From: Vicinamibacterales bacterium
GTDB taxonomy: Bacteria > Acidobacteriota > Vicinamibacteria > Vicinamibacterales > UBA8438
Assembly: GCA_965202695.1 (NCBI GenBank)
Contig: OZ241843.1
Location: 826,254-890,253 of the forward strand
Length of the DNA: 64,000 nt
Reading direction: 5' to 3'
Under the pieces are notes generated by a model, which made no database searches, was not told the DNA's origin, and was given only the letters and a program-made list of their open reading frames with translations. Below are positions 1,910 to 60,056 of this stretch, one piece after another; the stretch's first letter is position 1, and every line of letters starts with the position of its first letter. The position numbers and the translations under genes are program-made.

Positions 1910-1926
1910 CACCCACCCCGGGCGGA

Positions 1927-6385: not shown

Positions 6386-6412
6386 CGGCTCACCTGTTCT
6401 ACACTGGTGGAC

Positions 6413-8131: not shown

Positions 8132-8145
8132 CCGGAGGGTGGCTG

Positions 8146-24772: not shown

Positions 24773-24834
24773 CGGCCGACGCGGCCCGGTCGAGCGGGCG
24801 TTCGTCGGGTCCGGCTCACGCGGGAGGTTGGCAA

Positions 24835-26055: not shown

Positions 26056-26134
26056 CGTCTTGCGCCGGCGCCGGCCTCCGCCGGCTCCGCGCGCGAACCG
26101 GCCATGACGCCGCGCATCCGGTGTCCAACAGCCC

Positions 26135-29884: not shown

Positions 29885-29951
29885 CGGCCCGCGAACGGGG
29901 GCGGCGCCCGCCGGCCGGAGCGGCAGGCCGGCGGCGTTCCACCCCGGGTCG

Positions 29952-33482: not shown

Positions 33483-33547
33483 GGAACCGGTGGTCGGAAG
33501 GTGTCAGCCGCAGCGGCCCCTGGCTCGCATGTGCTTCGACGGCAGGA

Positions 33548-33787
33548 TCATGGCTCGACGACAGGTCCCGCCGTGTCGCACGGTATCCGTTCGGCTCGTG
33601 CGCCGCGTTCTCCGGCGTCGTCCTCGCGGGGCGCCAGCGTACGGGGCGGGCACTGCACGTAGTTCCGGCCCGACTTGGCTTCCACGGCCTTGACGTGCCT
33701 GAAGATGGCTTCGAGGTCATCGTCGAACCGTGCGGCCAGCCGGTCTCGCGCGGCCCGCACTTCCGCCACGATGGGGTCGGTGGTCAT
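33548..33787 (-). CDS. Small partner protein of the upstream PIN protein (antitoxin-like, 79 aa)
   Basis: ATGA overlap with the PIN gene stop. IVAEVRAARDRLAARFDDDLEAIFRHVKAVEAKSGRNYV resembles small proteins I recall paired with this PIN family. Confidence 0.5.
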   Translation of the reverse strand: MTTDPIVAEVRAARDRLAARFDDDLEAIFRHVKAVEAKSGRNYVQCPPRTLAPREDDAGERGARAERIPCDTAGPVVEP

Positions 33788-34281
33788 CGTTCTCCATCCT
33801 CGTCCACGAGTTGTTCGGGCGTGCACAGCACCGGGGGATCGACGCCTGCTCCGCGACAGACCGATTCGATCCGCGGCCTGGACATCGCATTCGCAATGTG
33901 ACGGAAGTTCCACGTCACGAGAAACTCCACGCCGTGAACCGCGGCGATGGCGACGTGCGCCGCGTCTTGCGCCGCCCGTTCGGGAACGGCCCCGACACGC
34001 ACCAGACGCCGCGTCAGTTCCAGTGCTTCCGTCGGCGCCGCGAGCGTCGTCAGCGGCGCGAGGGCGGCAAGTCGGGCGCGGGACGCATCGTGATCGCCGA
34101 CGGCCGCTTCCTCCCGAACCAGTTCGGAAATCACGAGGTCGAACCGCTTGGGGGCAGTCTCCCACCAGTCGCGGGTGCTTTGTTGCCGGCCTGCGATCAC
34201 GACGTCGCGCGCCGGCCGCGCCGTCAGGTAGCTGACGATGCTGGTCTCGACATAGACGCGAGGTCTTGCGGATGCCGTCAT
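33784..34281 (-). CDS. PIN-like domain protein (VapC-family toxin candidate)
   Basis: VYVETSIVSYL (first acidic residue), LVISELVREEA, and AAQDAAHVAIAAVHGVEFLVTWNFRHI match a PIN-like layout. Confidence 0.65.
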   Translation of the reverse strand: MTASARPRVYVETSIVSYLTARPARDVVIAGRQQSTRDWWETAPKRFDLVISELVREEAAVGDHDASRARLAALAPLTTLAAPTEALELTRRLVRVGAVPERAAQDAAHVAIAAVHGVEFLVTWNFRHIANAMSRPRIESVCRGAGVDPPVLCTPEQLVDEDGER

Positions 34282-34405
34282 TCGTCCCTCACACCCGGAA
34301 CAGCAGGCGGCTCGTTGCCCACGTCTTCCGGTCAGCCGCTCGGATCGTCGAAGATCGAAACCCGGCCCGTTACGTGCGCACGATGCCGTGCATCCTCGAA
34401 AAGTT

Positions 34406-35602
34406 TCACGCCGCCTCCGGGACCCGGTTGGTCCGATAGGCTGATATCACTTCTTCCTTTATCAGTCCCCTGTGACCCAACCTCTTCGGAGCCAGCATCC
34501 TGTCCCGAATGGGATCTCTGAATCGGTCGAACAGCGCGAAACCCTTCTTTTCGATAATCGCATGCAGGACGTTCCACGTGCAAACTCTCACGCTTCCAAT
34601 CAGATTGTCCCCGCACACGACCACCAGACACGCATTGTCGTCCAGCGTGTCCCTTATCGTGTCGAACGCATTGTCCATGTCGTAGAAGTACCGATGAACG
34701 ACGGCGCACAGGCGGGGATTCCGCGACTTCAAGCTCCTCAACGCCGGCGCCAACGTGAAATCCCTTTCGATGGATTCCCGAGGCACCCCTTCCAGCAACC
34801 TTCCTCGTTCTCTCCCCACGAATCGTTCCTTCACGTCCTTCACCTTGAACGGCAGTACGTCTTCCAGCAGATGCAGCTCGAGCTTGAAGTTCCGAAAATA
34901 GTCCTGCGCGTTGATGTATGGCGGCGACGTGATGACGTGCGAGTGCCGCCCCAGGTCTCTGAAGCTCCGCCGCGGATCGCAAACGTCGGCGCAAGCGAAG
35001 CGGGATCCGACGCTCGCTTCGCGACCTCCCCCGTAGAGCATCGAGAGCTCTTCCAACAGCTTCAGCATGATTCCATACGGATCGAAATGCCGCCCCGCCC
35101 TCGAACGCCGCGCTTGCTGCGAGATGAACGGCTTCGGGCTTCGCTGATCCGCCCTGGAGCACAACCGGACCGCAAGAGCGTAACCGAGAAGAACGGGCCA
35201 ACATTCCGGGGTGCCCCGGAGAGGAACGCTCCTGCTGGCTGCTCTCAAGCGCTCGAATTTTTCGAGGGTGCCCGCCGTAAACCAGTAGCTCTTGCCGATC
35301 CAGTCAACCGGCAACGGTTCGATCGGGCGTTGCGCCTCGGCAATCCACGCCTTGCCGAGCTCCCGGGCGCGATCCAAGTCGAATCCCTGGACCTTCACGC
35401 GGTAGAACAACTCCGAGATCGGGTTCAAGTCGACACCTGAAACCCGAAGTCCGGCTCGGTTGGCCGCGGCGGCTATCGCACCCGATCCGCAAAATGGATC
35501 GAGAACGGAATCCGCCTCGGCCGCGTATCGCCGGATCAGCCGATCCGCCAGCCGGGACACCATCTTGCCCGGGTAGCGGTCCAGTCTCGTGGCCAGTCTC
35601 AT
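34406..35602 (-). CDS. Stand-alone DNA methyltransferase (N6-adenine/N4-cytosine; motif I N-terminal, motif IV SPPY ~230 aa later)
   Basis: ATG at 35602 overlaps the upstream stop (ATGA). VLDPFCGSGAIAAAA is motif I and HVITSPPYINAQDY is motif IV. Low G+C relative to the window. Confidence 0.8.
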   Translation of the reverse strand: MRLATRLDRYPGKMVSRLADRLIRRYAAEADSVLDPFCGSGAIAAAANRAGLRVSGVDLNPISELFYRVKVQGFDLDRARELGKAWIAEAQRPIEPLPVDWIGKSYWFTAGTLEKFERLRAASRSVPLRGTPECWPVLLGYALAVRLCSRADQRSPKPFISQQARRSRAGRHFDPYGIMLKLLEELSMLYGGGREASVGSRFACADVCDPRRSFRDLGRHSHVITSPPYINAQDYFRNFKLELHLLEDVLPFKVKDVKERFVGRERGRLLEGVPRESIERDFTLAPALRSLKSRNPRLCAVVHRYFYDMDNAFDTIRDTLDDNACLVVVCGDNLIGSVRVCTWNVLHAIIEKKGFALFDRFRDPIRDRMLAPKRLGHRGLIKEEVISAYRTNRVPEAA

Positions 35603-36549
35603 TTGCCGCCAGCCGTCTTGAGCACCCAGGTCGGACCGATTCCCGTGGAGAAGAACGCGTGGTTGTGCCGAAGCGGTCCCGCGTAGACGATCGCCGGCGG
35701 GTCGTCCGCCTTCCTGACGTAGTCGTAGATGCCCAACGTCTGCGGCTTGGTGCCCAGCGGACAGATGATCCGCGCGAAGCCACCCCTCCCCGACCCTCCG
35801 AGAACGTCCGTGAGAGTCGCGCTCGCCGCGGCCGGGTCCAGCGCATCGATTTTCCGAACCTCCTTTCTGCCGACCACGGTCAGAAGGTCGTGGTTGAACT
35901 CCTCCGTCCTTCCGGTCCAATCCGGCCTGTACGGTGGATCGGGGACCGCCAACGTCGTCTTCATCGGCTGGATCTGTTCATAGACCGCCATCGCCCGGTC
36001 GCCCTCGTATCCCAGGAACAGTATCAAGTGAACGGGGCGGCTGAGGTCGGGACAGGCGGAAAAGCCGGGAGCCTGTTGGAGAGAGGCGAGTCCAAACGAA
36101 AGCGGAACGTACCTGGAAACCAGATAGTCGCCCGGTTCGCTGTACACGACGTGCAGTCGGTCCCACAGACCGTGGTCGTCGAGCCACCGCAGCATCATCA
36201 GCAGGTGTCGCTTCGTGAAGACGGAAATGTCGATGACGACGGCCCGGCCGGCGGACCGCTCCATGGACCGGCGAAGCTCGTCCATGTTCGCGCGAAGGCT
36301 CGTGACCGCGTCGGCTTCCGTGAACTGAAGAACCGTCAACCGGGCGCCGAGCTTTCGGAACGCGGATTCCATCTGTCGATGGTTCCTTTCGCGCGCGGGG
36401 CTCTCGTCGTCGTAGTGAAACAGGACTACTTCACGCGGCGACCAGGCCTGCGCGCGAGTCAGAAGCCCCTTGCACCGATCCTCATGGCTGGAACAAGTGA
36501 TCAGCACCGCCCCGTCGGGCAGGCATCCAACCGTCAGCGGCCGCCTCAT
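35599..36549 (-). CDS. Uncharacterised 316-aa protein, middle gene of the TIR-NTPase/MTase operon
   Basis: ATGA overlaps at both ends (36546-36549 and 35599-35602). Alternating beta-strand-like hydrophobic runs (VLITCSS, VVLFHYDD, VVIDISVFTK, HLILFLGYEGD, ARIICPLGTKPQ) suggest Rossmann-like alpha/beta folds. No family recognised. Confidence 0.6.
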   Translation of the reverse strand: MRRPLTVGCLPDGAVLITCSSHEDRCKGLLTRAQAWSPREVVLFHYDDESPARERNHRQMESAFRKLGARLTVLQFTEADAVTSLRANMDELRRSMERSAGRAVVIDISVFTKRHLLMMLRWLDDHGLWDRLHVVYSEPGDYLVSRYVPLSFGLASLQQAPGFSACPDLSRPVHLILFLGYEGDRAMAVYEQIQPMKTTLAVPDPPYRPDWTGRTEEFNHDLLTVVGRKEVRKIDALDPAAASATLTDVLGGSGRGGFARIICPLGTKPQTLGIYDYVRKADDPPAIVYAGPLRHNHAFFSTGIGPTWVLKTAGGK

Positions 36550-38819
36550 TCGTCTTCCCCCATCTGGAACAAGGGGCGATTCCGCGACGTGTCGCTGTTG
36601 GAATTCTCCATCGCCTTCTTCAATCTGCGCACCGCGTGCTCCCTCGTGTCGGGTTGAAGCAGGCCCTGCAAGTCGGAGCACCGGACCGTGGTTCTCCAGC
36701 GGAGACGCGGACTGATCTGCAGGACGGGAGCGTAGACCCGGCAGATGTTGAATTCGACCGGCTGTGGATCGGAACCGTGCTTCGGCTTGAACGCCGGGAG
36801 ACCTTCCTTGGTCTGAAAAACCCCTTCCCGTTCGCCGACCGCAAGGACGCGTTTCAACGCCTTCATGGAGTCTTTTGCCAGTACTTCCGGGTCCGCGATC
36901 GTCAAGCGCGCCGCCTCCAGCTCGCTGGTGTGCCTGAGCAGCTTGTGCCGAAGACAGGCGCCAAGATCCAGCAAGAAGTACTTCAATTCTTCGCCGTGCC
37001 GCTCGACGTTGCGACTGAGCGTCGTGAGGTTGTCCTGGGAAACGATATGAACGGCTCTCGACTGCCGATCCGGCGGAAGAACGAGCGAGCCGGCCGGCGG
37101 AGACTCGGCGCCAAAGGTGAGGTGATAGCCGACGCTCAGGAATTCCTGGAAATAGCGGATTACCCCGGATCCCAGAAGCGCGAGCTCCTTGAAACCCGCG
37201 AACCGTTTCTCCTGTTGACGGCCGGACTTCGCGAGAAGGACTCGATAGAGCGCCGCTTGACCCCAGTAAGTTTTCTTCTCCCGTCGTTTTTCGTCCGGCA
37301 GGCTCTCGAATCGTTCAGGCGCGAGCTTGCTGAGCTTGGCCACTTCCGCGAGACACAGGGATGGATCCACCTCCGGGTCACCAAAGCCGGGCAGAAGTTC
37401 GTCCATGTCGAACGGCCGATCGTCGTCGAGCGTGACCATGTTCCTGACGATGTGCCGCAACAGCTCACGATAAGCCTTCTTCTGGTCCGCATCCTGCAGG
37501 TTGTAGACCAGAGGAACCCTCGTATAATCGTGAATCTCCTGCAACTCCTGACCGGTCGTCGTGGCCGGCGTATCTCCGCTCGCGAGTTTCTTGGCAATCT
37601 TGATCGAAAGATGTGGCGGACCGAGCTTGATCAGGCCGTTGACTATCCGTTGCTGGTAAGAAAACAGATTCTCGTATTCGTCGAGCAGAACGACGAACAT
37701 CGACGATTCGAGCGTGGGAACGGCTCTGCGCACCAGGAGCACGACGCGCTTGAATTGCTCCAGGTCGAACGTCGCCATCGGAACGGACGCCGCTTCCTGA
37801 TAGACGAACTTGCGCCGGATGAATTCCGCCAGTCGCTTGTGCGCACTCGACAGCTTTGCTTGCAGTTCCGCGAAGGAAACGATCCTGCCGTCCGTGGAGT
37901 CGAACAACAGCTCGTCCGCCGCTTCGCAAATACGTGGCTCGATATTCCTGCCGTACTCAATCAGATCATGCGTGACGCAGTACTCCAGTTCTGAAAACAG
38001 GCTTTCCGTCATTTGCAGCATCAGTTCCTGGGCTGCAACGTCCGTGAGGATGGCCTCGGCGGCCGAATCCAGGCGTTCGGCATCGAAACGGGCTCCAATG
38101 TTGCAAAGCGCCCCGCGAGTGAGCTTCAGGTAGAATCCGAAACGTCGGGGCGCCGTTTTTTCGGAAGGGCGCCGTTGCAGAAAGTTGCGCGCACGCAGAG
38201 ACAGCAGCAGCATCGACTTGCCGGTGCCCCGGGAGCCTTCGAGAATGCAGGGTGTCATTTCCTCCAGCGCGCCGATCTTGACGGTGTCCGGCGGCGCGAA
38301 CGTCTTGGCGTGAAGCTTCGGCTGTTTCTCGAAGTATTCCGCTCGAAGATGACGGAAAGGATTTCCTGAATCCGGCCTGAACGCCTCGGAGACCAGGGAC
38401 GACGCGGTCTGGTCGCTGAACAGCACCGCGCAGACCTCCTCGACCAGTTTCTTGACAGAATCCCGGTCGTCCGGTTCCAGCCGCCCGTACACCTTGGGTC
38501 CAAGTATCGGCGGCACAGGCGTGTCGTCCAGTCGGACGACGATGCACCGCCCGCCGTCGGCGGCGACCTCGTTCCAGACGGCGGCTTCGACTTCGAGATT
38601 CTGCCATCTTGCGGAACGAGTGTGCTCGGACAAGAGAATGATGATCGCGGCGGCGGCGCGGATCTCCTCGTTCATGAATGCGATGGCGCTGTCGCCAAGG
38701 CCGAGATCCTGCGTGTCGACCGTCGCCTCATGGCCCGCATTGCGGAGATGCTTCACCAGAGCGGTCGCGATGCCCGCGTCGGGGCCGGCGTGGGAAACGA
38801 AAATGCGTCTGATGCCCAT
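36546..38819 (-). CDS. TIR domain fused to a P-loop (ORC/Cdc6- or STAND-like) NTPase, 757 aa
   Basis: N-terminal IFVSHAGPD...IIILLSEHTRSARWQNLEVEAA is a TIR layout with the W-x3-E catalytic context. Walker A GSRGTGKS (aa 195-202), Walker B FVVLLDE (aa 375-381). Long helical C-terminal region. Confidence 0.8.
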   Translation of the reverse strand: MGIRRIFVSHAGPDAGIATALVKHLRNAGHEATVDTQDLGLGDSAIAFMNEEIRAAAAIIILLSEHTRSARWQNLEVEAAVWNEVAADGGRCIVVRLDDTPVPPILGPKVYGRLEPDDRDSVKKLVEEVCAVLFSDQTASSLVSEAFRPDSGNPFRHLRAEYFEKQPKLHAKTFAPPDTVKIGALEEMTPCILEGSRGTGKSMLLLSLRARNFLQRRPSEKTAPRRFGFYLKLTRGALCNIGARFDAERLDSAAEAILTDVAAQELMLQMTESLFSELEYCVTHDLIEYGRNIEPRICEAADELLFDSTDGRIVSFAELQAKLSSAHKRLAEFIRRKFVYQEAASVPMATFDLEQFKRVVLLVRRAVPTLESSMFVVLLDEYENLFSYQQRIVNGLIKLGPPHLSIKIAKKLASGDTPATTTGQELQEIHDYTRVPLVYNLQDADQKKAYRELLRHIVRNMVTLDDDRPFDMDELLPGFGDPEVDPSLCLAEVAKLSKLAPERFESLPDEKRREKKTYWGQAALYRVLLAKSGRQQEKRFAGFKELALLGSGVIRYFQEFLSVGYHLTFGAESPPAGSLVLPPDRQSRAVHIVSQDNLTTLSRNVERHGEELKYFLLDLGACLRHKLLRHTSELEAARLTIADPEVLAKDSMKALKRVLAVGEREGVFQTKEGLPAFKPKHGSDPQPVEFNICRVYAPVLQISPRLRWRTTVRCSDLQGLLQPDTREHAVRRLKKAMENSNSDTSRNRPLFQMGEDE

Positions 38820-38856
38820 TGGAGTTGTTAGAAATTCCCGTCTTGCGTGTTTTCCT

Positions 38857-41800
38857 TCACACCCGGAACACCTTCATCACCTCGTCGCCCAGGTGGTTGA
38901 TCACCTTCACGGCGATGCGGCCGGACGCGGGGCGGGGAAACGGGCGCGACGTGTCGCTGCGCAGGGTGGCCCACGCGTCGGGGTCGATCTCGGCCTTGAG
39001 CGTCGTGCGGAGCGCCTTGTACGGGTCGTTGGCGCCGAGGAAGTAGGCGTGGCGGACGAAGAAGCTCTCGTCGTTGTAGTCGGTGTCGATGAACCAGCAG
39101 GCGATGCCGTCGGGGCCGTCGCTGCGGACCTCGCCGGTGTTGGGGTGGAAGACGTCGACGCCGGCGATCCGGACCCGGATGCGGCCGGCGTCGGGCTTGT
39201 CGCCGCCGCCGGGCCTGTCGCCGCCGCCGGGCCTGTCGCTGGTGCCGGGCCTGTCGCCAGCGCCGGGCGTGTTGCCGGAGCCGGACTTGTCACCGGCGCC
39301 GGGGTCGCCGTGCGAATCGTCACCGTCGGCGGGCAGGATCTCGACGTCCGGCTCGCCGAAGACGACGAACAGGTTGCCCTTGCCGGTGTTCTTCAGCTCG
39401 CCGGCCATGTGCAGGTCGGCGTTCATGCGCGCCTTCAGCACGGGCAGGGCGCCGAGCCTGCTGAAGTCGGTGGTGTGCGGTTCGTAGTTGAAGGCGCAGG
39501 CGATCAGCACGTCGAAGCCGGCGTAGCCCGCTTCGCGCGCGGCGCGCACGAGGTCCTGCCGGCTCACCGTGCCGAACTCGGGGCCGACGAGGATGCCGGC
39601 ACGCCGCTCGGGGCCGTCGTCGTCCTCGCTTTCGACGTAGCGGCCCTGGGCGCAGATCAGGTGACCGGGCCAGGGGTCGAGCGCGGTGAAGCGGATGCGG
39701 TCGGCCTTGCGCGCCTGCTGCACGCCGGCGGTGGCGAGGTGGCCGAGCACCATCGCGGCGAAGTCTTCCGCCGACCCGTAGGCGGGGGCCTGCTCGGCGA
39801 CCCGGTCGATCAGCTCGTCGCGCTCGTCGAGGGCCAGCAGGCGGTGCGGCGACAGGCTTTCGACGGTGAACGGGCCGGCGACGCGCACCTTCTTTCGGTC
39901 GTCGTACGGCTTGTCGTAGAGGTATTCGACGTCGGCGCGCGCGGCGATGGAGGCGTCGATCTCCCGCTGCCGCGCGATGCGCGCCTCCCACCACCGGCGG
40001 TGCGCTTCGGCCGCGGCGGCCGGCCACGGGTCGCGCGGCCCGGCGGGGAGATCGGTCAGCGTGTAGCGGCGGTCGAGCGCGGCGTTGACGGCGCGCAGGG
40101 CGGCGGCGCGGTCGGCGTCGGTCCCGGCTGCTTCCAGACGCTTCCAGGCCGCGGCGGCCGCGGGGGGCCACGGCTCGCCGGCGTCGCGCGGGATCTCCCA
40201 CTCCCGCCACGACCGGCCGAGCGCGGCGTTCAGGTCGGCGCGGAGCGGCTCGAGCGTCTCCTGCCAGCGTTCCCAGATGACGTCGATCTCCGCGTTGTTG
40301 GCGATCGACTTGAGGGTGACGTGCGGCACGCGCTCGTAGACGAAGCCCTGCCGGACGTCGCCGCGCGTAGGCGCCTCGGACGGGGCCGCGCCGGTGATTT
40401 CGGCTTCCTTCCGCTGTCCCTCCGGGCTGTCGGCGAGCAGGTAGTAGGGGTAGCGCGCGCCCATGATGCGGGCGCGGGCGAGCGCGAGGGCGACGCGCGA
40501 CGTGTCGATGGTGATCCAGCGGCGGCCCCACTGCTCGGCGACGTAGGCGGTGGTGCCGGATCCGCAGGTGGGGTCGAGGACCAGGTCGCCGGGGTCGGTC
40601 GCGAGCAGGATGCAACGTTCGATGACCTTATTGCTTGTTTGAACTACATAGGTGAGTCCCGTGCCAAGTTGAACAGATTCCCATCTGTCATTTAGAGGAA
40701 CGACAGCAAAATCATCGATACGCCGGATGTATCTGATCGTTCGTCCACTAGAACGAACGCGTCCAGCAGCAGCAAGTCTCGTCAAACCTGCGAAGTTGGA
40801 TTTGGACGTTCCCTGGCCGGGCATGTATGCTACGCCTTGATAAACAAACTCAAGAAGATCTCCTTCTCCTTTCGGGCGAGCGCTCGTCAACGACGTAAGC
40901 TGACATCGTATAACCGCGCCAGCGGTTTCACCGTTTGATTCGTCATCGAGATCGCTTTTGTTCAATCTGCGAAGAGTGCCGTCTTGCGCAATAGCCATAT
41001 CGTAGCGTTCAAGTGTAGTACTCCCGGGTCTGCGTTCCGCATAAAGCCGGCGGTACTTCACTCGTTCAATATTCCTTGCGAAAACCAAAAGGTAGTCGAT
41101 GGTCTGCGGAACAAGTGTTTGATCCGTTGAACCCGTTTTTTGGAAACCTATTGTACCGACGTAATTGTCTCGTCCGAATACCTCATCCATCAGCGCCCGC
41201 ACCCGGTGGACGTTCTCGTCGCCGATCTGCACGAAGATGCTCCCGCTCTCCGTCAGCAGCTCCCGCGCCACGGTCAGCCGGTCGCGCAGGTAGGTCAGGT
41301 ACGAGTGAATCCCGTCGCGCCACGTGTCGCGGAACGCCTTCACCTGCTCGGGCTCACGGCTGATGTGCTCGGCCTTGCCGTCCTTGACGTCGCGGCTGGT
41401 GGTGGACCACTGGAAGTTGGAGTTGAACCGGATGCCGTAGGGCGGGTCGAGATAGATGCACTGCACCTTGCCGCGCAGCCCCTCGCGCTCGGCCAGCGAC
41501 GCCATCACCTGGAGGCTGTCGCCCAGGATCATCCGGTTCGACCAGTTGGCGTCGTGCCGGTAGAACTCGGTGCGGGCGTCGCCGGCGGGCAGGCCGTTGA
41601 AGTCGGCGAACAGGTCGGGCTGCCCGTCCCCGCCCCCGGCGCCCGCCTGCCGCGCGCGGGTCTCGCGCCGCAGGTCGTCGACGAGGACCTTCGGGTGCAC
41701 CTTCTCCTGGATGAAGAGCGGCGGGGCGGGCACGACGAGGTCGGACCAGTCCGCGAGGTCCTTGCCGCGCCAGACGAGCTGCGGGTCGAGGTCGCGGTTG

Positions 41801-41943
41801 CGGCGCTTCCAGGCGGTGCGGACCGGCTCCTGCTCGGCCGGGCCGAGGACCGGCTCGAACTCGGCGGTCGGGATGTTCCGGCGCGAGGCGGCGCCGTGGG
41901 TGAGGGTCTCGACCGTCCTGGGTTTCTTCGGTGTCCGCGCCAT
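38857..41943 (-). CDS. mod: Type III restriction-modification methyltransferase (Mod), beta-class N6-adenine MTase with long C-terminal extension
   Basis: ATG at 41943. IYLDPPYGIRFNSNF (motif IV) precedes VLDPTCGSGTTAYVA (motif I), with a divergent low-G+C TRD between them. The upstream part of the 1160-aa ORF overlaps vapC and is rejected. Confidence 0.85.
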   Translation of the reverse strand: MARTPKKPRTVETLTHGAASRRNIPTAEFEPVLGPAEQEPVRTAWKRRNRDLDPQLVWRGKDLADWSDLVVPAPPLFIQEKVHPKVLVDDLRRETRARQAGAGGGDGQPDLFADFNGLPAGDARTEFYRHDANWSNRMILGDSLQVMASLAEREGLRGKVQCIYLDPPYGIRFNSNFQWSTTSRDVKDGKAEHISREPEQVKAFRDTWRDGIHSYLTYLRDRLTVARELLTESGSIFVQIGDENVHRVRALMDEVFGRDNYVGTIGFQKTGSTDQTLVPQTIDYLLVFARNIERVKYRRLYAERRPGSTTLERYDMAIAQDGTLRRLNKSDLDDESNGETAGAVIRCQLTSLTSARPKGEGDLLEFVYQGVAYMPGQGTSKSNFAGLTRLAAAGRVRSSGRTIRYIRRIDDFAVVPLNDRWESVQLGTGLTYVVQTSNKVIERCILLATDPGDLVLDPTCGSGTTAYVAEQWGRRWITIDTSRVALALARARIMGARYPYYLLADSPEGQRKEAEITGAAPSEAPTRGDVRQGFVYERVPHVTLKSIANNAEIDVIWERWQETLEPLRADLNAALGRSWREWEIPRDAGEPWPPAAAAAWKRLEAAGTDADRAAALRAVNAALDRRYTLTDLPAGPRDPWPAAAAEAHRRWWEARIARQREIDASIAARADVEYLYDKPYDDRKKVRVAGPFTVESLSPHRLLALDERDELIDRVAEQAPAYGSAEDFAAMVLGHLATAGVQQARKADRIRFTALDPWPGHLICAQGRYVESEDDDGPERRAGILVGPEFGTVSRQDLVRAAREAGYAGFDVLIACAFNYEPHTTDFSRLGALPVLKARMNADLHMAGELKNTGKGNLFVVFGEPDVEILPADGDDSHGDPGAGDKSGSGNTPGAGDRPGTSDRPGGGDRPGGGDKPDAGRIRVRIAGVDVFHPNTGEVRSDGPDGIACWFIDTDYNDESFFVRHAYFLGANDPYKALRTTLKAEIDPDAWATLRSDTSRPFPRPASGRIAVKVINHLGDEVMKVFRV
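39193..39318 (-). repeat. Seven in-frame 18-bp tandem units inside mod (Gly/Asp/Pro-rich hexapeptides)
   Basis: Units of gggc(c/t)tgtcgcc(g/a)(c/g)cgcc encode GDPGAG-DKSGSG-NTPGAG-DRPGTS-DRPGGG-DRPGGG-DKPDAG. Confidence 0.8.
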
Positions 41944-41960
41944 GACTGCTGCGCTCTCGT

Positions 41961-42359
41961 TCACGTCTCCCATACCGTCTCGACGTGCGGGTAATCGAGA
42001 ATCCTCGCATCGGCCGTGACGACGGGCGCCGACAACCTGCGGGCTTCCGCGACGATGATCCGATCCGCCGGGTCGCGGTGGAACGGGACAGGCAATGCAT
42101 AGGCTTCTTCGACGGTCCCCAGTTCTACCGGCAGCACCGTCCAGCCGTTCGATTGCACGTGGCCCCGGAACCAGCGGCGCCAATGCCGATCGAGTTCGAT
42201 ACGCCCGCGCTCCGCGGCGCACGCGATCTCGGCGCAACTGATGGCGGAAACGCATACCTTCGTATCGGCCGTTTCCAGGATCGCGACGACCCGGTCGGGA
42301 AGCCGCTCGGGTTCGCTGACCGCCCAGATGATCGCGCAAGTGTCGAGTACGACCGTCAC
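41961..42359 (-). CDS. vapC: PIN-domain toxin VapC
   Basis: VVLDTCAIIW (first Asp), SAISCAEIA, HRDPADRIIVAEA and VVTADARIL are canonical PIN acidic-residue positions. 4-bp overlap with the upstream antitoxin. Confidence 0.85.
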   Translation of the reverse strand: MTVVLDTCAIIWAVSEPERLPDRVVAILETADTKVCVSAISCAEIACAAERGRIELDRHWRRWFRGHVQSNGWTVLPVELGTVEEAYALPVPFHRDPADRIIVAEARRLSAPVVTADARILDYPHVETVWET

Positions 42360-42604
42360 GACGGTTTCTTCCCCAGCATCTCCCAGTCGCCGAGCGGGAT
42401 CATGGGGTCGACCAGACTCTTCTTGACGACGACCGACCCCCTGCCGGAGCCGAGTACCGTCCGGTTGCGTTGATGGGCCGGGATCGGGACTACGCGGGCG
42501 AGAGGCGTGTTCCGTTTCCGGATCTCCAGCTCCTCTCCGTTCTGGACGGCGGCGAGGTACTCGCTCAAGTGGTTCTTGAACTCCGCGACGTTGGCTATCT
42601 TCAT
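42356..42604 (-). CDS. Phd/YefM-family antitoxin
   Basis: MKIANVAEFKNHLSEYLAAVQNGEELEIRKRNTPLARVVP is a Phd/YefM N-terminal fold signature. ATG at 42604. Confidence 0.75.
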   Translation of the reverse strand: MKIANVAEFKNHLSEYLAAVQNGEELEIRKRNTPLARVVPIPAHQRNRTVLGSGRGSVVVKKSLVDPMIPLGDWEMLGKKPS

Positions 42605-42663
42605 GGCCGCATTATAGGCCCTGTCCGAGCGGGGCCGTCCGGGCGCGGCGTTCGTCGCGGCTG

Positions 42664-42915
42664 TCACCGGTTACCCGCGCGTGGGTCGGAATCCGTGGCG
42701 GCCACGGGACGGAGCCGCGCCGCCGGAACCGTGGCCACCGCCGCCGTGCCGCCGTCAAGGGTCAGAAACTCCACCTCGAAGGCCCGGCCGTCGCGATAGA
42801 CGTGCACGATTGTGCCGACGTCTCCCGCCTTCAGGCGCAGGCCGGGAACGTCCTCCGTGAGCACGATGCGATCATGTTCTTCCAGCATCGCTCGTCCGGC
42901 CCGTGGCAGTTTCAT
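42664..42915 (-). CDS. DUF4926-domain protein
   Basis: HDRIVLTEDVPGLRLKAGDVGTIVHVYRDGRAFEVEF matches my recollection of DUF4926. An alternative start is at 42888. Confidence 0.55.
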   Translation of the reverse strand: MKLPRAGRAMLEEHDRIVLTEDVPGLRLKAGDVGTIVHVYRDGRAFEVEFLTLDGGTAAVATVPAARLRPVAATDSDPRAGNR

Positions 42916-42945
42916 GCGCTCCGGCGACCATCGGTGTCCGGGGCA

Positions 42946-43191
42946 TCAGGCCGCCCCGCCTTGCGTGAACTCGAAGACCGTCAGCGGAACGGACCGAACC
43001 GGCGCCGCGTCGCCATGCGCCATCCGCCGGACCCGCTCCGCGGTTTCGCGGCTGAGCGACTGCTCTCCGCACCGGACGCAGACACGCGCCGGAATGCGGC
43101 CGACCAGCACGTAGCGGTCGCCGACGCGAAAGACGTCGTCGACCAGATCGTCACGGCTCCGATCGGCGCCGCAGACCGGGCAGTCAGGCAT
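42946..43191 (-). CDS. YgiT-type zinc-finger protein (MqsA-N-like)
   Basis: CPVCG...(x27)...CVRCGE form two CxxC pairs with the typical YgiT spacing. Confidence 0.65.
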   Translation of the reverse strand: MPDCPVCGADRSRDDLVDDVFRVGDRYVLVGRIPARVCVRCGEQSLSRETAERVRRMAHGDAAPVRSVPLTVFEFTQGGAA

Positions 43192-43233
43192 GCTTGTCTC
43201 CGTCGGATGTAATCGACGTGTCCAGGAGGAACT

Positions 43234-43455
43234 TCACAACTCCACGTCCCGCGCGACGTCACGGGGCCGAATGAGGTCGACGCCCTCCAGCGGGCAGGCC
43301 GCGAGCAGAGCCTTGAAGCCGCGACCGGACGCGGCGCCGAACCGTTCGCGCAACGTAGCCCGCGCAGCAACCTCGCATTCCGGGTCGCGCAACGGCGCGG
43401 CTACCGTGCGAACGAGCTGGTCCTTGTAGGTTGTTCTGGCAGGCATGGTCGTCAT
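43234..43455 (-). CDS. Hypothetical small protein (73 aa)
   Basis: ORF sits in the position where a toxin would follow the upstream antitoxin, but it has no PIN features. The C-terminus LEGVDLIRPRDVARDVEL looks antitoxin-tail-like. Confidence 0.3.
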   Translation of the reverse strand: MTTMPARTTYKDQLVRTVAAPLRDPECEVAARATLRERFGAASGRGFKALLAACPLEGVDLIRPRDVARDVEL

Positions 43456-43458
43456 CCC

Positions 43459-43905
43459 TCACTCTGGCCCGGCATCATCCCAGTCGCCGGGCGGGATCAG
43501 AGGGTCCACCAGACTCGTCCTGACGATCACCGAACCTCGGCCGGAGCCGAGCACCGTCCGATTGCGTCGGACGGCGCGGGCGTCCGGCGCGTTCCGGTTC
43601 CGGATCTCCGGCTCCTCTCTGTTCCCGAAACCAAGCTCGTCGGCCGGGTCGAGCGGTTCCAGCGTATCGTCCACGTCAGGGAACTCGTCGGGTAGCGGCG
43701 GCAGACGCGCGAGCAGGTCGAGCAGGCGGCCCTTCCCGACCGGTTCGATGACCAAGCGGTCCCCGTCGCGCCAGATGACGGCTTCCGCGCCGTCGATCTC
43801 GAAGTCGCGGGGAATGCGCACCGCCTGACTGCGCCCGCTCCTGAACAACCGTACGCGGCGCACTGCTTCCGGTTCGTCCCGGGACTTCCGCATACCTCGA
43901 ATCAT
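43459..43905 (-). CDS. Chimeric antitoxin: AbrB/MazE/SpoVT-type VapB N-terminus + Phd-type C-terminal tail
   Basis: GGAGG RBS 8 nt before the ATG at 43905. RLFRSGRSQAVRIPRDFEIDGAEAVIWRDGDRLVIEPV is the AbrB swapped-hairpin. The tail RNRTVLGSGRGSVIVRTSLVDPLIPPGDW is near-identical to the tail of the 42356-42604 antitoxin. Confidence 0.65.
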   Translation of the reverse strand: MIRGMRKSRDEPEAVRRVRLFRSGRSQAVRIPRDFEIDGAEAVIWRDGDRLVIEPVGKGRLLDLLARLPPLPDEFPDVDDTLEPLDPADELGFGNREEPEIRNRNAPDARAVRRNRTVLGSGRGSVIVRTSLVDPLIPPGDWDDAGPE

Positions 43906-44137
43906 ATGCCGGCCTCCGTCTCGCACCAAAACCGACGCGGCAGAACGTTGCCTGCGATCCTCGATCGTCCGGCTCGTCACCACCGAGACGACGGACGCAC
44001 CAAACCGACGCGGCAGGGAACGTTGCCTGCGATTCGGGGCATGGTGACGGCTCCGCGCCGGCCGCGAGGAATCCACGGTTCCGCGCCGCGCCGCCGCCGA
44101 TCATCGGGTACGATGCGGAAGACGGTGTGATTCCGCC

Positions 44138-45091
44138 ATGCCTGACCGAACCGCGCGTCACGTCCACGGCCCCCCGGACGCCTGGACGGTCATCGACGGC
44201 CGCCCGGACGAGACCGAACTGCGGCCCGTCCTCGACGCCATCGCCGCGGCCGTCGATCCGGACCGCATCATCGTGTTCGGCTCCGCCGCCCGCGGGACGA
44301 TGACCGCCGACAGCGACGTCGATCTGCTGGTCGTCAAGCGCACCGACGACCTGCGCGCGCTCCGCGCCGCCGTCCGCGCCGCGCTGGCCGCCAACCGGCG
44401 GCCGGTCGACGTCGTCGCCGGCACGCCGCGTATGCTCGACGAGCAGCGTCGATGCCTGAGCATGGTGTACGGCCCCGCGTTGCGGGACGGGGTCGTCGCC
44501 TGGGCCCGTGGCGCCCGCGAGACGACGGGCGCTCCCGCGTGGAGCACGCTGCCCGAACGGAAAGGAACCTCCGGCGAAATGGTCCGAACCCTGCGCTTCC
44601 GCCGCGAGGAAGCGGACACGTGGCTTGCCAAAGCTCGGGAAGATCTGACCGTGGTGAACACCACCGACGCGGCGATTCCCTTCGCGCCGCGGGCGTACAG
44701 CGCGCAGGCGGCGACGGAGAAGGCTCTCAAGGCGCTGCTCGTGGCGCACGGGCGGCCGGTTCCGTTCGACCACGATCCGGACACGCTGGCCGACCTCGCC
44801 GTCCAGCAGGGCGAAGCGCTGCCGGCCGTCGCCGCCCGCGACGCCCTGGAAGCGTTGTCCGACTACGGCGGACCGGCGCAATACCCGCACTACGGCGGGG
44901 AGGCCGACCCGGGCGCCGAAACCCTGTTTCCGGCGATCGCCAACGAGATGACGGCCCACGCGGCGTCCCGCGTCGACGCGATCCTGCGTGGGAAGCGCCC
45001 CCGGAAGGCCGCGGGCGACGCCGGTCGGCCCGACCAGGAAGGAAAGCGTCCGGGCCGGAGCGGTCCGGCTGGCGAAGAATCAAGCGACTGA
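44138..45091 (+). CDS. Fused minimal nucleotidyltransferase (MNT) + HEPN-domain protein
   Basis: IIVFGSAARGTMTADSDVDLLVV is the GSxxRG...DxD NTase motif. The C-terminal helical region ADTWLAKAREDL...EKALKALL...YP has a HEPN-like layout. Confidence 0.6.
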   Translation: MPDRTARHVHGPPDAWTVIDGRPDETELRPVLDAIAAAVDPDRIIVFGSAARGTMTADSDVDLLVVKRTDDLRALRAAVRAALAANRRPVDVVAGTPRMLDEQRRCLSMVYGPALRDGVVAWARGARETTGAPAWSTLPERKGTSGEMVRTLRFRREEADTWLAKAREDLTVVNTTDAAIPFAPRAYSAQAATEKALKALLVAHGRPVPFDHDPDTLADLAVQQGEALPAVAARDALEALSDYGGPAQYPHYGGEADPGAETLFPAIANEMTAHAASRVDAILRGKRPRKAAGDAGRPDQEGKRPGRSGPAGEESSD

Positions 45092-45224
45092 AGCAGGGAC
45101 GGTCCTGCGCCGCGCCCCGGCGCATCGAACGGGGCCACCACGCGGCGGCTGGGCCGCGGTCGCCGCGGGCCGGCGAAGAGGCCGCGCCCCGGCGCATCGG
45201 ACGGGGCCGTCGCGCGGCGCGCGC

Positions 45225-48200
45225 CTATCGGCTCGGGAGGGACGCGAACGTCCGCTCGAAGGCGGCGGAGACGGCGGCGTCGAGGTCGGTCTCCATCGCG
45301 TACGCGGACGTCATCTCCCGGAACGTCCAGCGGCCGAACGCGCCCAGGCGGTTGACGGCCGGGACCCAGTAAGTCTCCATCGCCGTCTTCTTGTCCTTCG
45401 CGTCCTCGCGGCGGTAGCCCTTGACCTCGACCACGAGACGCAGGAGGTCGTCGGGGCCGCGCCCGTCGTCGACGAGCAGGACGAAGTCGGGCAGGTAGCG
45501 CCGGTGCTCGGCGCCGCGGCGGTAGGGGACCTCCAGCCCGAGGTTGTGGTTCTTGACGTACGCCCGCACCCGCGGGTGCGCCTCGGCGACGCGGCAGAAC
45601 TCCGCCTCCCAGTCGCTGTCGCAGACGGCCCAGTCGACGTGGCAGCGCCGGGCGTCGGTTTGCCAGCGGGTCTGCTTCGACGTGGCGAACCGCACGTGCC
45701 GCGTGGACCCCTCGGGGTTGTAGGGGTCGAGCATCGCCTGGATCGGGCGGGTCTCCCGATGCCGCTCGACGATGCCGTCGGTGATGCGCCGGCAGGCGTG
45801 GTCGGCCAGCTCGGCGTACAGCAGTTGCGCCGGGCGCGTGCCCCCTTCGCAGACCAGATGCGCGTCGAGCCACTGCCGGGCGATGCGCTTGAGCTGGCCG
45901 AACAGGTACAGCCGGGGCTCCTGGTTCGGGTCGCGCCACTCGGTCAGCAGCAGATGGCGGGTCAGGTGGTAGAGCAGCGTGGCGCGCCGCACGGCGCCGG
46001 CGCGGACCAGCGTCAGGTCGATCCCCTCGCCGACGATCCCCTCGTTGCGGGTGACGGCGGGGCCGACCAGCTCGGGGGTGAGCACCAGGGTGGAGTCGTC
46101 TTCGAAGCGGGCCGTCAGCCGGTCGTCGGGGAGCTCCACGCGGTAGCCCTGGACGCGCGGGAAGCGGATTTCGCACGCGTCGCGGTCCGGCGTCACCGCC
46201 CGCACCATGACCGTCTCGCGCGGCGGCAGGGGCGGGGCCACCACCGGCTTGGCGGTGAAGTCGAACGGGATGCCGAGCACGTCGGCGTACTCCACGTCGA
46301 ACAGGCCGGTCTCGCCGTTGACTTCGTACGACTGCCGGCGTAGCGCGCGGCCGACGATCTGTTCGCAGAGAAGCTGCGTGCCGAACGCCCGCACGCCCAG
46401 CAGCCCGTGGTGGAACCCCCGCGTCGCACCGAGAGCGGCGATGCGCCCGCCTGACAAGGCGTGAGAAGGGCGCATATTGGGCATATTCAACCGCCGAACA
46501 ACGCAGTCAGGCGGGATGCAGCGCCGCTCGAATGCAGCGGGGCGTTTCACCACGGGCTGCCAGGACGTGGGTGACGGTGCGCGCGTCCCAGCCCTCGCTG
46601 AGCATCGAGACCGACACCACGCAGCGGGTCCGCCCGCCCAGGCGGCCCTCGACGCCGACGGTGTTGACCACCTCGCGCAGCAGGTCTTCGTCGGTGAGCC
46701 GGTCGGCCTGCCGCCGGTCGCCGGTGCGCGCGACGATCTCGCGCCGGAAGCGTTCGATCTCGTCGGCCGCCGCGGCGCGGAACCCCCGGTCGAGCGCCTC
46801 GCCCGAGTCGAGCTGCTCGCTGTCGATCAGCAGCGTCCGGGGTCGGGGGCAGGGGCGGCCGTGCTCGTCGAAGTTGCGGAAGAGCGGCAGGCGGCCCTGC
46901 TCCAGGCTGGTCGAGCCGTCCTCGCGCCGGCGGTGGAACCCGGAGACGTAGTCGTAGACCAGCTTCGACGTGGCGGTGTTGTTGCAAACGATGATGAAGC
47001 AGGGGGGACGCGGATGCCCGCCTCCCGCCACGCGTCGAAGGTCCGCGCGTAGTGGCCGTACAGCGCCTCGAGGGCGGTCACCAGCTTCGTCGGCAGGCGC
47101 AGCGGATCGGCCGCGCCCGCCCCGCGGCCCTTCTTCGGCATCTGCCTGCCGACGTGCTTCCACAGCTCGCGGAACTGGGGCATCTCGGCGCCGGGGACGT
47201 TGTCGGCCACCGGCACGCGCGGCAGCTTGACGATGCCGCACTCGATGGCGTCGAGCAGCGAGAAGTCGCTCGCGGTCCACGGGAACAGCGTCCCCTCGGC
47301 ATAGCCCGACCCGCGCAGGAAGAACGGCGTCGCCGACAGGTCGACGACCCGCTGCAGGCCGAGCCGGCGCCGCACCGCTTCGAGGCCCGACATCCAGATG
47401 CGCGCGGCCTCGCGGTTCTTCTGCGCCTCCTGCCACTCGTCGCCCCGCAGCGCGCCCTCGACCGACTCGGCCGGCCTCTCGCGGTAGCAGTGGTGGGCTT
47501 CGTCGTTGAGCACCCAGATCCGCTTCAGGCCCATCAGCTCGGGCAGGACCCGCTGCAGCATCCGGCCCTCGGTCTCCCGCGTGCGCAGCGGGGCGCCCTG
47601 GCCCTGGAGCAGGGCGCGGCCGACGGCGGAGACGGCCAGCGTCTCGCGCCGCTGGAACGCGTGGTAGTTGGTGACGACGATCTTCGCCCGCTCGAGGTCG
47701 CGGAGCATGTCGGGCGGGACCAGCTCGCGGCTCGCGTAGTAGCTGTCGGGGTCGTGGGGCTGGAGCACGCGCAGGCGTTCGCGGATGGTCACGCCGGGCG
47801 CGACCACCAGGAACCCCCGCGTGAAGCGCGGGCTGGCCGGGCGCCGGACCGCGTTGACGGTCTGCCACGCGATGAGCAGGGCCATGACGGTGGTCTTGCC
47901 GGCGCCGGTCGCGAGCTTCAGGGCCACCCGGTCCAGGGCGGCTGACGGCTCCGCCGCCGCCCCGGCGTTCGCGTTCGCCAGGTGCTCGAGGTAGCCGCGT
48001 CCCTCCCGGCCGATCTTCGGCGCGACCTCGGTCAGCCAGATCACCGTCTCGGCCGCCTCGACCTGGCAGAAGAACGGGCGGACGCCGCCGAAGGCGTGGC
48101 GCCGCCAGTGCCGCAGCAGGCGCGCGGTTTCGGGCGTGACCCGCCACGCGCTCTCCGGCGCCGCCCGCCAGCCGTCGACGGCGCGCCGCAGGCCGTTGAC

Positions 48201-48461
48201 GAACGCCGTCAGGTCGTACTGCTGGTCCGCGGTCCCGACCGCCGCCGCGGTCTCGTCGGCGACCAGCGCGAGCTGCCGGGCGCGGCGTTTCCGGGGCGCG
48301 GGGATCGGCGAGACGTACGCCGAGGGCCGCCGCCCGTCGACGACGCGGTTGGTCGGCCGGTTGTCCGCGTCGAGCTCCCAGTGGCGGCCCGGCCGCTCGT
48401 ACGGCGAGTTGAGGATCGGCCGTTCGTGGAAGGCGTCGGAATCCGCGAACATCCGGGGCAT
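45225..48461 (-). pseudogene. res: Type III restriction enzyme Res subunit (SF2 helicase + C-terminal PD-(D/E)xK nuclease), disrupted twice
   Basis: Walker A LATGAGKTT, DEAH box VLNDEAHH, motif VI-like SMLSEGWDARTVTHVL, nuclease core LPDF...VVEVKG. The reading frame breaks at the G6 tract 47002-47007 and again at a 160-bp insertion at 46401-46560. Confidence 0.8.
46401..46560. mobile_element. Family-1 palindromic MITE/REP-like element (160 bp) inserted in res
   Basis: Termini are CAGCCCGTGGTGGAAC (46401-46416) and, as the reverse complement of the right end, (G)CAGCCCGTGGTGAAAC. The ~55-bp arms are mutually inverted. CAG flanks both sides (46398-46400 and 46561-46563). Deleting 46401-46560 restores ...TVTHVL-LGVRAFGTQLLCEQ in frame. 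Confidence 0.65.
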
Positions 48462-48596
48462 TCTCGCATGGCCAGCGGCGCACGTGCGGATGCGGGAAGC
48501 GACGGCGCATGCGGAAAGACGCCGCGCAAAAAGACCCCGCGCAGCGGGGTCCGCTGCGCGGGGTCCATCTTTCCGCGTCCGGGCCGATCGGGCGGC

Positions 48597-50840: not shown

Positions 50841-51376
50841 CTTTCCCTCCTTGACGGTTCCCATGACTGCTCCCGAAATCCACCGGACGAGTCCGAGCCT
50901 CGCTCCGCGGACGAGTCCGCCCCTCGGCCGGCGTCGTCGACGACCACCGCACCGCACCGCGGCCGCCTTCACCGGGCGGCGACCGCGTCACTGGACGGGA
51001 CGGCGGCGCCGCGCCCGATCCGCCGCGAAACGCTCTCTTCGGACTGCCCCATGAAGCACTGTCCCGCCGCCGACGGCGGACAACGCACACGCATTGCTTT
51101 CATCGGCCCTGGGAAAAGCCGACACGTTGGAGGGATGGGCGTGACCGCGTACCCGCCGCGATTATGGGAGAACCGATCGGCGCTGTCAAGGGTAAAATAC
51201 GCGGGTTCCCTGCCCGACTGGCGCATCGGCCGTTCGGTGCGACGGCAGGGCTGACGAGGGGGACGGGAATACGACGGCCGTTCCGGGGGTCCGAGTCATC
51301 GACGGACGGTTCGAGACCGGCGCGGCGCGCGCGACGGCAAGACGTCCTGTTCCAGGGAGACCATCGGAGACCATCG

Positions 51377-58536: not shown

Positions 58537-60056
<1,520 letters not shown>

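Follow-up and report, generated by a model that had tools for sequence, protein, structure and literature searches.

TIR domains are NAD+-cleaving modules common to bacterial, plant and animal immunity, and CARF proteins have so far been linked mainly to type III CRISPR signalling; the two are joined in Cat1, whose architecture is CARF-TIR. Here we analyse a 64,000-nucleotide stretch of DNA (the window) from a Vicinamibacterales bacterium (assembly GCA_965202695.1, contig OZ241843.1, positions 826,254 to 890,253 of the forward strand), in which a predicted TIR protein, a stand-alone CARF protein and a predicted DNA methylase are encoded by three consecutive genes (the trio) inside an 18.6-kb defence island. 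The initial annotation of the region had described the trio as a TIR-NTPase, an unknown and a methyltransferase; all three genes are present, and the product of the ‘unknown’ one is, judging by its modelled fold, a tandem-CARF protein. Because high-G+C DNA gives many spurious open reading frames (ORFs), genes were picked by codon-position G+C and then scanned against Pfam, PADLOC and NCBIfam. The trio consists of:

36546–38819, minus strand: gene 1, TIR domain (residues 1–126) joined to an ORC/Cdc6-like AAA+ ATPase (residues 153–707), 757 aa.
35599–36549, minus strand: gene 2, stand-alone tandem-CARF protein of the CARF6 family (PADLOC CARF6), 316 aa.
34406–35602, minus strand: gene 3, SPPY amino-methyltransferase, 398 aa (Pfam N6_N4_Mtase, 8.5e-13; PADLOC MTase_II, 3.5e-19).

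As in Cat1, TIR-STING, SPARTA, TIR-NLR/Avs and the Thoeris protein ThsB, the trio TIR domain keeps the glutamate of the ‘W..xEL’ motif and is linked to a module for sensing or oligomerisation. It matches TIR_2 at 1e-18, and Foldseek matched it to TIR domains with a probability of 1.0. Residue E76 aligns with the ‘W..xEL’ Glu of BtpA and PdTIR, which we take to be the catalytic Glu of TIR, and is invariant in 21 homologs. The family profile matches structures of Cat1, AbTir, TIR-STING and SPARTA; in their depositors’ names, Cat1 is ‘CRISPR-associated TIR 1’ and AbTir an NAD+ hydrolase. Unlike in these TIR NADases, the trio TIR is partnered by an ORC/Cdc6-like AAA+ ATPase instead of a STAND module, Argonaute or STING, and a methylase is obligatory. 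The ATPase part matches PF24389 (ORC-CDC6-like) over residues 153–707 at 7.9e-51, with 173.9 bits against a cut-off of 27, and its Walker A (GSRGTGKS) and Walker B (LLDEYE) motifs are invariant. Homologs number 279 at E<=1e-5, and the best 120 of the 279 are mostly ~755 aa long and 53–99% identical. Assignment to Thoeris was rejected, since among the island proteins scanned with PADLOC the ThsB model was matched at 4e-4 only and no ThsA, the SIR2 or Macro effector with SLOG that accompanies ThsB, was found.

Like Cat1, the trio operon includes a CARF protein, but here it is a separate tandem-domain protein rather than one fused to TIR. It matches the PADLOC model PDLC01917 (CARF6) at 3.6e-25, and eight further CARF6 models as well. 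The AlphaFold2 model (predicted local distance difference test score, pLDDT, 87; predicted template modelling score 0.89) has two Rossmann-like halves, and Foldseek aligned it, with a probability of 1.0, to the CARF domains of TtCsm6, Cam1, Can1, Csa3, Can2 and the ring nuclease Sis0455. The CARF signature [DN]x[ST]xxx[RK] follows strand 4; here it reads D107-I-S-V-F-T-K113, with D107 and K113 at least 95% conserved in 33 loci, and the second half carries a conserved G266-T-K268-P-Q motif. In having two Rossmann-like CARF halves the protein resembles CARF6 (‘CARF6--CARF_CARF_CARF’ in PADLOC) and Can1, itself a two-CARF protein; it differs from the CARF6 family in that the window copy lies outside a CRISPR context and has no fused effector domain. 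A PDB sequence search with it gave no match. Homologs number 428 at E<=1e-3, the best 120 of which are mostly ~316 aa long and annotated at most as ‘hypothetical’; an exhaustive profile search gave 1709 cluster representatives at E<=1e-3, of which 613 pass E<=1e-10.

The methylase carries motif I DPFCGSG (residues 35–41) and motif IV TSPPY (residues 225–229), both with a conservation of 95% or more across 33 trio loci; its base specificity is not readable from the sequence. A methylase and ATPases in one operon recall MADS, BREX and DISARM, for which a methylation-based distinction of self from non-self is proposed. The likeness to MADS extends to weak matches of the trio methylase to mad2 (1.9e-6) and of distant ORC-like proteins to mad8 (1e-6). 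In contrast to these systems, the trio has no MAD6-8, BrxC/PglZ or DrmA/B, and its effector is a TIR domain. The MADS model makes MAD6, MAD7 and MAD8 mandatory (bioRxiv 10.1101/2023.03.30.534895). Membership of MADS was rejected, as no island protein scanned with PADLOC matched mad6-8 at E<=1e-3.

Each trio gene shares 4 nt with the next, the CARF stop and the methylase start included, and from this layout they can be taken with good confidence as an intact, translationally coupled operon. To collect trio loci, GTDB species genomes were scanned and then searched by tblastn with the proteins of the window. Some 40 loci from more than ten bacterial phyla and from archaea, down to 28% identity, keep the genes in the order TIR-ORC, CARF, methylase; they come from Vicinamibacterales, Bryobacterales, Holophagales, Terriglobia, Latescibacterota, Nitrospirales, Verrucomicrobiota, Planctomycetota, Spirochaetia, Binatia, Betaproteobacteria and Hydrogenedentota and, among archaea, Methanoregula and Methanobacteriota; a scan of IMG/VR found no viral copies. 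Measured against the window copies over 35 loci, the identities of the three proteins vary together (r = 0.95–0.98). In two loci (L003 and L004; L-numbers are our labels for related loci) the cassette stands alone between housekeeping genes. Integrases, transposases, Type I restriction-modification and BrxL genes turn up both in the context of trio loci and, in a survey of 32 loci, among the nearest neighbours; the context also includes AbiE and type III-B CRISPR genes, and the nearest neighbours SLOG and TIR genes. In three loci the TIR-ORC gene is broken by an independent insertion sequence (IS), with the CARF and methylase genes intact:

L026 11312–12946 and L034 11464–13167: ISL3-family elements in the TIR-ORC gene, at different codons.
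L031 10862–11638: DDE_Tnp_1 element in the TIR-ORC gene.

That TIR-ORC, but not the methylase, has been hit fits an effector that is costly and a methylase that protects.

The island that holds the trio was delimited by comparison with related genomes:

29881–48527, no strand assigned: whole island (blastn against L088, the empty site, and against L087, L086 and L026).
End at 29884, plus strand: flanking ABC-2 permease gene, convergent with the 791-aa repeat-protein gene.
48597–50972, minus strand: flanking 791-aa repeat-protein gene, ending at 48597.

In L088 the site is empty: the repeat-protein and ABC-2 permease genes lie 95 nt apart, against 18.6 kb in the window, and L088 8960–12324 corresponds to window 51907–48528 and L088 12420–14773 to window 29880–27527 (blastn). 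Since the flanking genes abut there, the island is taken to span 29,881–48,527 and to include the RecB-like gene; the initial annotation had rightly seen a defence island, but its 33548–48461 was too small an extent. Flank homology in relatives ends at 29880–29889 on one side and 48522–48529 on the other, and the flanks are 81–92% identical in nucleotide sequence to Vicinamibacterales genomes. Other relatives carry other inserts at the site, an IS in L087, a TniQ-containing insert in L086 and just a mod remnant with the trio in L026, and the breakpoints of all three are identical to those of the window island, which starts directly past the conserved hairpin that terminates the repeat-protein gene. 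Presence/absence polymorphism at a fixed site among relatives is thus joined to atypical composition, as expected of a genomic island. We are therefore fairly confident that an 18.6-kb defence island was acquired horizontally at a chromosomal insertion hotspot between two convergent genes. What weighs against this is that no integrase, att-like or flanking direct repeat or tRNA was found at the island edges; the sole Rfam match in the window is a tRNA-Ser at 54.7 kb.

Around the site, three further observations were made. The 791-aa flanking protein has 4–5 internal repeats of ~143 aa, lacks a Pfam match, is 78–95% conserved in relatives and belongs to an uncharacterised repeat-protein family. 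In L026 the 3' end of the ABC-2 permease gene (window 29524–29885) is duplicated at 16220–16584 and 18744–19100, and the copies bracket a 2.2-kb insert with a ParA-like ATPase, which suggests a further integration event at the same hotspot. At ~23800–26100 of the window there is an apparent tandem duplication of a ~1.28-kb gene, as one GSDH-family gene of L088 matches both 24781–23836 and 26057–25116.

Within the island, composition changes from block to block. Against a window background of 72.7% G+C, the 34–39 kb segment falls to 58–64%; by block the G+C fraction is 0.75 in the RecB-like helicase gene, 0.62 in the PIN-like pair and trio, 0.68 in mod, 0.70 in the toxin-antitoxin cluster and 0.73 in res. 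At least three classes can be told apart by G+C at third codon positions (GC3): res and the RecB-like gene at 0.93–0.98, mod and the toxin-antitoxin genes at 0.76–0.87, and the trio and PIN-like pair at 0.74–0.80. There is good reason to regard the island as a five-module mosaic: a Type III restriction-modification system, a toxin-antitoxin cluster, the trio, a PIN-like pair and a RecB-like nuclease-helicase. Relatives do not keep these genes as a conserved core of uniform composition: the L088 site is empty, other relatives hold other inserts and the GC3 classes are distinct. The low-G+C blocks and patchwork reported initially are thereby borne out.

Window positions 33,587–46,043 (12.5 kb) form one collinear block that is 96–98% identical to the metagenomic contigs L006 and L007, whose flanks differ from those of the window and from each other. 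On the strength of this ~97% identity, much of the island probably arrived pre-assembled and then changed locally. The gene-by-gene build-up in this genome implied by the initial proposal of successive insertions becomes doubtful, since the 12.5-kb block is shared; the mosaic itself stands. The strongest rival holds that a block running from res to the PIN-like pair arrived by a single recombination event at the hotspot, to which we give a little less than an even chance, as we do to its corollary that the MITE in res (a miniature inverted-repeat transposable element), gain or loss of vapBC, a swap of the mod target-recognition region and the RecB-like helicase were later local events. Collinearity in L006 and L007 despite different flanks speaks for it, and L008 and L034 keep the same gene order at 77–97% identity. 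It is opposed by the sharp composition differences between modules and by relatives with subsets of the genes: in many phyla the trio by itself, in L026 the trio with a mod remnant, and in L001 a trio set apart from mod by intervening genes. Composition and subsets together indicate that the block itself was assembled stepwise somewhere in the lineage, so that this rival concerns the place of assembly, not its occurrence.

The relatives differ module by module, in vapBC presence, mod target-recognition regions and IS or MITE hits. L006 has a 3.5-kb insert (methyltransferase, Plug, TonB-dependent receptor) exactly between the MNT-HEPN gene and res, lacks vapBC, and carries an MC6 + CTD10/DUF2326 conflict system downstream (15365–17403). 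In L007, type III-B Cmr2–Cmr6 genes (1–5704) lie directly upstream of mod and the trio, with IS66 downstream. The order in L008 is res-DUF4926-Phd-VapC-mod-trio, and in L001 AAA, S8-peptidase and UvrD genes stand between mod and the trio. From these gene orders, together with the copied antitoxin tail described below, it follows that modules were shuffled within the lineage.

The distant relatives of the trio bear on its function. Remote ORC-CDC6-like proteins (PF24389, E 1e-71 to 1e-144) lack a TIR domain and have a separate ~300-aa gene upstream, which encodes PRTase-CE (PF24390) in L051, L053 and L055, the three loci scanned; two of these upstream PRTase genes were scanned with PADLOC and match retron PRTase_III-A models. 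A CARF6 protein is encoded 3' of the remote ORC-like genes, with matches of up to 6.6e-103. The last gene of the remote operons encodes an unrelated N6_Mtase-type methylase (L055, L057, L074), and the methylase slot is filled by an EndoIII/HhH-GPD DNA glycosylase in L059 (6981–7622, Methanophagales) and L061 (4091–4984, Caldisericota). The PRTase-CE operons (L053, Lachnospiraceae; L055, Micromonospora; L059, Methanophagales) thus share with the trio the order of an ORC-like protein, a tandem-CARF protein and then a DNA-base enzyme; they differ in having a separate PRTase rather than a TIR fusion, and an N6_Mtase or EndoIII/HhH-GPD as last gene rather than N6_N4. Read from these sequences, the shared plan is a TIR or PRTase effector, an ORC/Cdc6 AAA+ ATPase, a tandem-CARF protein and a DNA-base enzyme, the effectors in both cases being of the nucleotide N-glycosidase type. 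Since the last component has been replaced non-orthologously, DNA modification status is argued to be integral to function.

In the mechanism that we propose, the methylase would mark host DNA, and the ORC/Cdc6-like ATPase would bind unmarked incoming DNA and oligomerise. Oligomerisation would gather the TIR domains, leading to NAD+ hydrolysis and abortive infection, and the tandem-CARF protein, on binding a nucleotide (the TIR product or some other signal), would tune or relay the response. The parts of this scheme differ in standing. Domain content and gene context make it likely that the trio is an immune system; that methylation serves as its self-mark we favour slightly; and nucleotide binding by the CARF protein, with tuning or relaying of TIR activity, is put forward tentatively, at somewhat less than even odds. 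It is a more speculative proposal, and rather doubtful at present, that the trio and its PRTase, methylase and glycosylase relatives make up an undescribed defence family gated by DNA modification. Equally speculative are the two roles suggested within such a family, namely that the ORC/Cdc6 ATPase senses unmodified (or modified) invader DNA, and that the CARF protein links the TIR or PRTase effector to small-molecule signalling independently of CRISPR.

Several points weigh against the proposed scheme. The AlphaFold2 model of the TIR-ORC protein is too poor (pLDDT 61) for judging a DNA-binding winged helix or an ORC fold, and Foldseek recognised its TIR part only. Nor is the ORC-like part covered by any PADLOC 2.0 model, and it hence lacks an independent annotation; in NCBIfam (June 2026), models are missing for both this part and the CARF protein. 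The role of the CARF protein in the trio is not constrained by the data, and DNA need not be what the methylase acts on. The survey of gene neighbourhoods was descriptive, with no controls for comparison, and the bias of IS insertions towards TIR-ORC, three or four hits against none in the methylase, is not statistically significant.

The trio might instead be an accessory effector of cyclic-oligoadenylate signalling, as in type III CRISPR or CBASS-like systems, with the CARF protein sensing an external cyclic oligoadenylate and switching on the TIR-ORC NADase in the manner of the CARF-TIR protein Cat1, and with the methylase incidental. The CARF fold, the use of CARF6 profiles for CRISPR accessory genes, the match of the TIR profile to ‘CRISPR-associated TIR 1’ and the Cmr2–6 genes of L007 are what one would expect of such an effector. 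Yet cas genes adjoin one of ~45 loci, that of L007, where mod lies between; no cas10, cas domain or cyclase was found among the island genes in the Pfam, PADLOC and NCBIfam scans; and a DNA-modification enzyme that is constant and non-orthologously replaced would be left unexplained. We consider this reading unlikely. More improbable still is a selfish addiction or maintenance module, with the ORC/Cdc6 part as replication or partition factor of a mobile element, TIR as toxin and the methylase as antidote, in a post-segregational killing like that of restriction-modification systems. ORC/Cdc6 homologs start replication in archaeal elements, trio loci often adjoin integrases, RepB and transposases, and the cassette is solitary in L003 and L004, all of which would suit it; but no replication origin, integrase or element backbone accompanies the trio, the trio was not found on IMG/VR viral contigs, and addiction and defence are in any case compatible in methylation-based systems. 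We now turn to the remaining modules.

The Type III restriction-modification module comprises:

45225–48461, minus strand: res pseudogene (BPTD_3080 family, Type III), with its NF046055 match over two ORFs.
47004–47005, minus strand: 1-nt deletion in res, where CCC[G]CCC has lost its G relative to L008, shifting the frame until the MITE.
46401–46559, minus strand: MITE inside res, 159 bp, with ~22-nt terminal inverted repeats and a CTGG target-site duplication.
38857–41943, minus strand: Type III mod, intact, 1028 aa (PADLOC MTase_III, PDLC03632, 1360 bits; Pfam N6_N4_Mtase, 1.5e-27).

ORF 46827–48461 covers NF046055 profile positions 2–462 (E 8e-188) and ORF 45225–46553 positions 595–969 (E 1e-131). 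The lesions were mapped against res of the related Vicinamibacterales locus L008 by tblastx and nucleotide alignment, and the terminal inverted repeats of the MITE read CAGCCCGTGGTG[A/G]AAC.... As L008 too has an indel, 55 nt away, the 1-nt frameshift could be a long-read assembly error, which counts against reading it as a lesion; the MITE is not explicable in that way. This leaves a Type III system with intact Mod and without functional Res, and from the gene structures mod very probably now acts as an orphan methylase. Mod has ...YLDPPYGI... followed by ...LDPTCGSGTT..., that is, DPPY ahead of motif I, the beta-class order. The module resembles Type III systems in its beta-class Mod, with DPPY before FxGxG and a central variable target-recognition region, and in a Res with a ResIII helicase part and a C-terminal RE_endonuc domain. 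It departs from them in that Res is not one uninterrupted polypeptide (MITE and frameshift) and in that res and mod are not adjacent but separated by 3.28 kb (first put at ~3.3 kb) and seven unrelated genes, one on the opposite strand.

The segment of mod at ~40620–41170, the target-recognition region, could not be aligned to L001, L006, L007, L008 or L034 and, as far as the alignments go, fits a swapped target-recognition region. At 39184–39303, Tandem Repeats Finder reports an 18-nt in-frame tandem repeat of 6.7 copies encoding a Gly/Pro/Asp-rich linker; alignments to all relatives break there, which suggests copy-number variation. A functional link between mod and the trio was considered and rejected, their adjacency being limited to Vicinamibacterales loci. 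The MITE-family terminus CAGCCCGTGGTGAAAC has 8 occurrences in the window, where 0.08 are expected, and none in 88 other loci searched; further MITE-related copies lie at ~1060–1267, 4988–5052 and 58537–58571. Window 4988–8194 is a second low-G+C block (60–68%), with an N6_N4 adenine-type methylase at 5142–6131 (Pfam 5.7e-48), a 574-aa ORF at 6407–8131 lacking Pfam and NCBIfam matches, and MITE-type terminal motifs at 4988(+), 6336(+) and 8179(-); it may be another small restriction-modification-like insert.

Between res and mod lie the toxin-antitoxin genes:

41961–42359, minus strand: VapC (PIN) toxin, 132 aa (Pfam PIN, 3.4e-16).
42356–42667, minus strand: Phd/YefM-type antitoxin, 103 aa (PF02604, 3.2e-9; TIGR01552, 5.8e-9).
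42664–42915, minus strand: DUF4926 protein (PF16277, 7.6e-21).
42946–43191, minus strand: YgiT-type (MqsA N-terminal-like) zinc-finger protein, 81 aa (TIGR03831, 5.5e-9; Pfam MqsA_antitoxin, 2.5e-4).
43234–43455, minus strand: 73-aa ORF, no family match, 99% conserved in L006.
43459–43905, minus strand: VapB (AbrB/MazE-fold) antitoxin, start codon inferred (NF047862, 6e-11; NF040493, 6e-10).
44138–45091, plus strand: MNT-HEPN fusion, 317 aa (NTP_transf_2, 2.9e-8; HEPN, 2.3e-9; MntA, 8e-9; PADLOC PDC-S09).

As in type II VapBC systems, the Phd-type antitoxin precedes the PIN toxin with a 4-nt overlap; vapC is absent from L006, L007 and L034 and present in L008. The MNT-HEPN protein has the two domains of type VII MntA/HepT, but in one 317-aa ORF, not in separate genes. 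Unlike toxin-antitoxin systems, the island VapB, YgiT finger and DUF4926 protein have no recognisable toxin partner, and no toxin lies adjacent to VapB. The C-terminal tail of VapB duplicates that of the Phd antitoxin (repeats 42381–42542 and 43478–43624, 84–86% nucleotide identity, 1.1 kb apart); the shared tail, presumably toxin-binding, looks like the product of antitoxin domain shuffling. Two copies of a 39-nt hairpin-forming repeat (45109–45147 and 45181–45219) lie between the convergent MNT-HEPN and res genes, and the 3.5-kb insert of L006 sits at this spot.

On the other side of the trio are:

33548–33787, minus strand: 79-aa ORF with a 4-nt overlap with the PIN-like gene, no family match.
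33784–34281, minus strand: PIN-like protein, 165 aa (Pfam PIN, E 5.4e-3, below threshold).
29952–33482, minus strand: RecB-like PD-(D/E)XK nuclease with an RNase H-like domain and a superfamily 1 (SF1, Upf1-type) helicase, 1176 aa.

Homologs of the PIN-like protein lie 3' of the trio in L006, L007, L029, L034 and L045, and a 71-aa homolog of the 79-aa ORF occupies the same position in L006 and L007; neither an NCBIfam nor a PDB sequence match was found for the PIN-like protein. The RecB-like protein matches TIGR03491 (1e-82), RNase_H_2 (2.4e-16), AAA_12 (3.7e-22) and also AAA_11, its gene has a GC3 of 0.93, and it was found in none of 92 loci examined, including the syntenic sites of L026 and L088. 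It resembles Nhi and the Mokosh proteins MkoA/MkoC in combining a nuclease domain with an Upf1-type SF1 helicase (AAA_11/AAA_12) and in lying in a variable island; unlike in Mokosh, its N-terminus is a TM0106-type RecB nuclease with an RNase H-like domain. Membership of Mokosh/Nhi was rejected, the match to MkoA and MkoC being confined to the C-terminal helicase part, residues 878–1156 (profile positions 764–1086 of 1112).

All elements listed in the initial annotation were thus recovered as ORFs with Pfam, PADLOC or NCBIfam domains, on the strands given and near the coordinates given. The disrupted res, the opposite-strand MNT-HEPN fusion (both domains matched), vapBC, the intact mod and the RecB-like nuclease-helicase hold as described. 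Two entries need amending: the five small toxin-antitoxin-type genes are four besides vapBC, and the second PIN pair is present with weak PIN support (Pfam E 5e-3). That the region is ordinary conserved chromosome, its patchiness being compositional noise and ORF over-calling at 73% G+C, can be given next to no weight. Spurious ORFs are indeed many in high-G+C DNA and promoter and terminator scans stayed at chance level, but the empty site and alternative inserts in relatives refute it and every named gene has strong domain matches.

In the searchable full-text literature, a scope that leaves out the paper defining the CARF6 family, no description of the trio operon was found, and its novelty is plausible; the adjacent accessions PF24389 and PF24390 suggest that the PRTase variant has already been noted by someone. 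The island itself is textbook-like, with its empty-site reference, hotspot, MITE decay of a restriction gene and diversification of mod target recognition. The value of the region lies in the intact operon, in which TIR, CARF and a DNA methylase form one co-evolving unit from Acidobacteriota to methanogens. If the proposed scheme is true, CARF sensing would operate outside CRISPR, and what methylation self-marking gates would be an effector of abortive infection in place of a nuclease. The PRTase-for-TIR and glycosylase-for-methylase variants offer a natural experiment on the wiring of the system.

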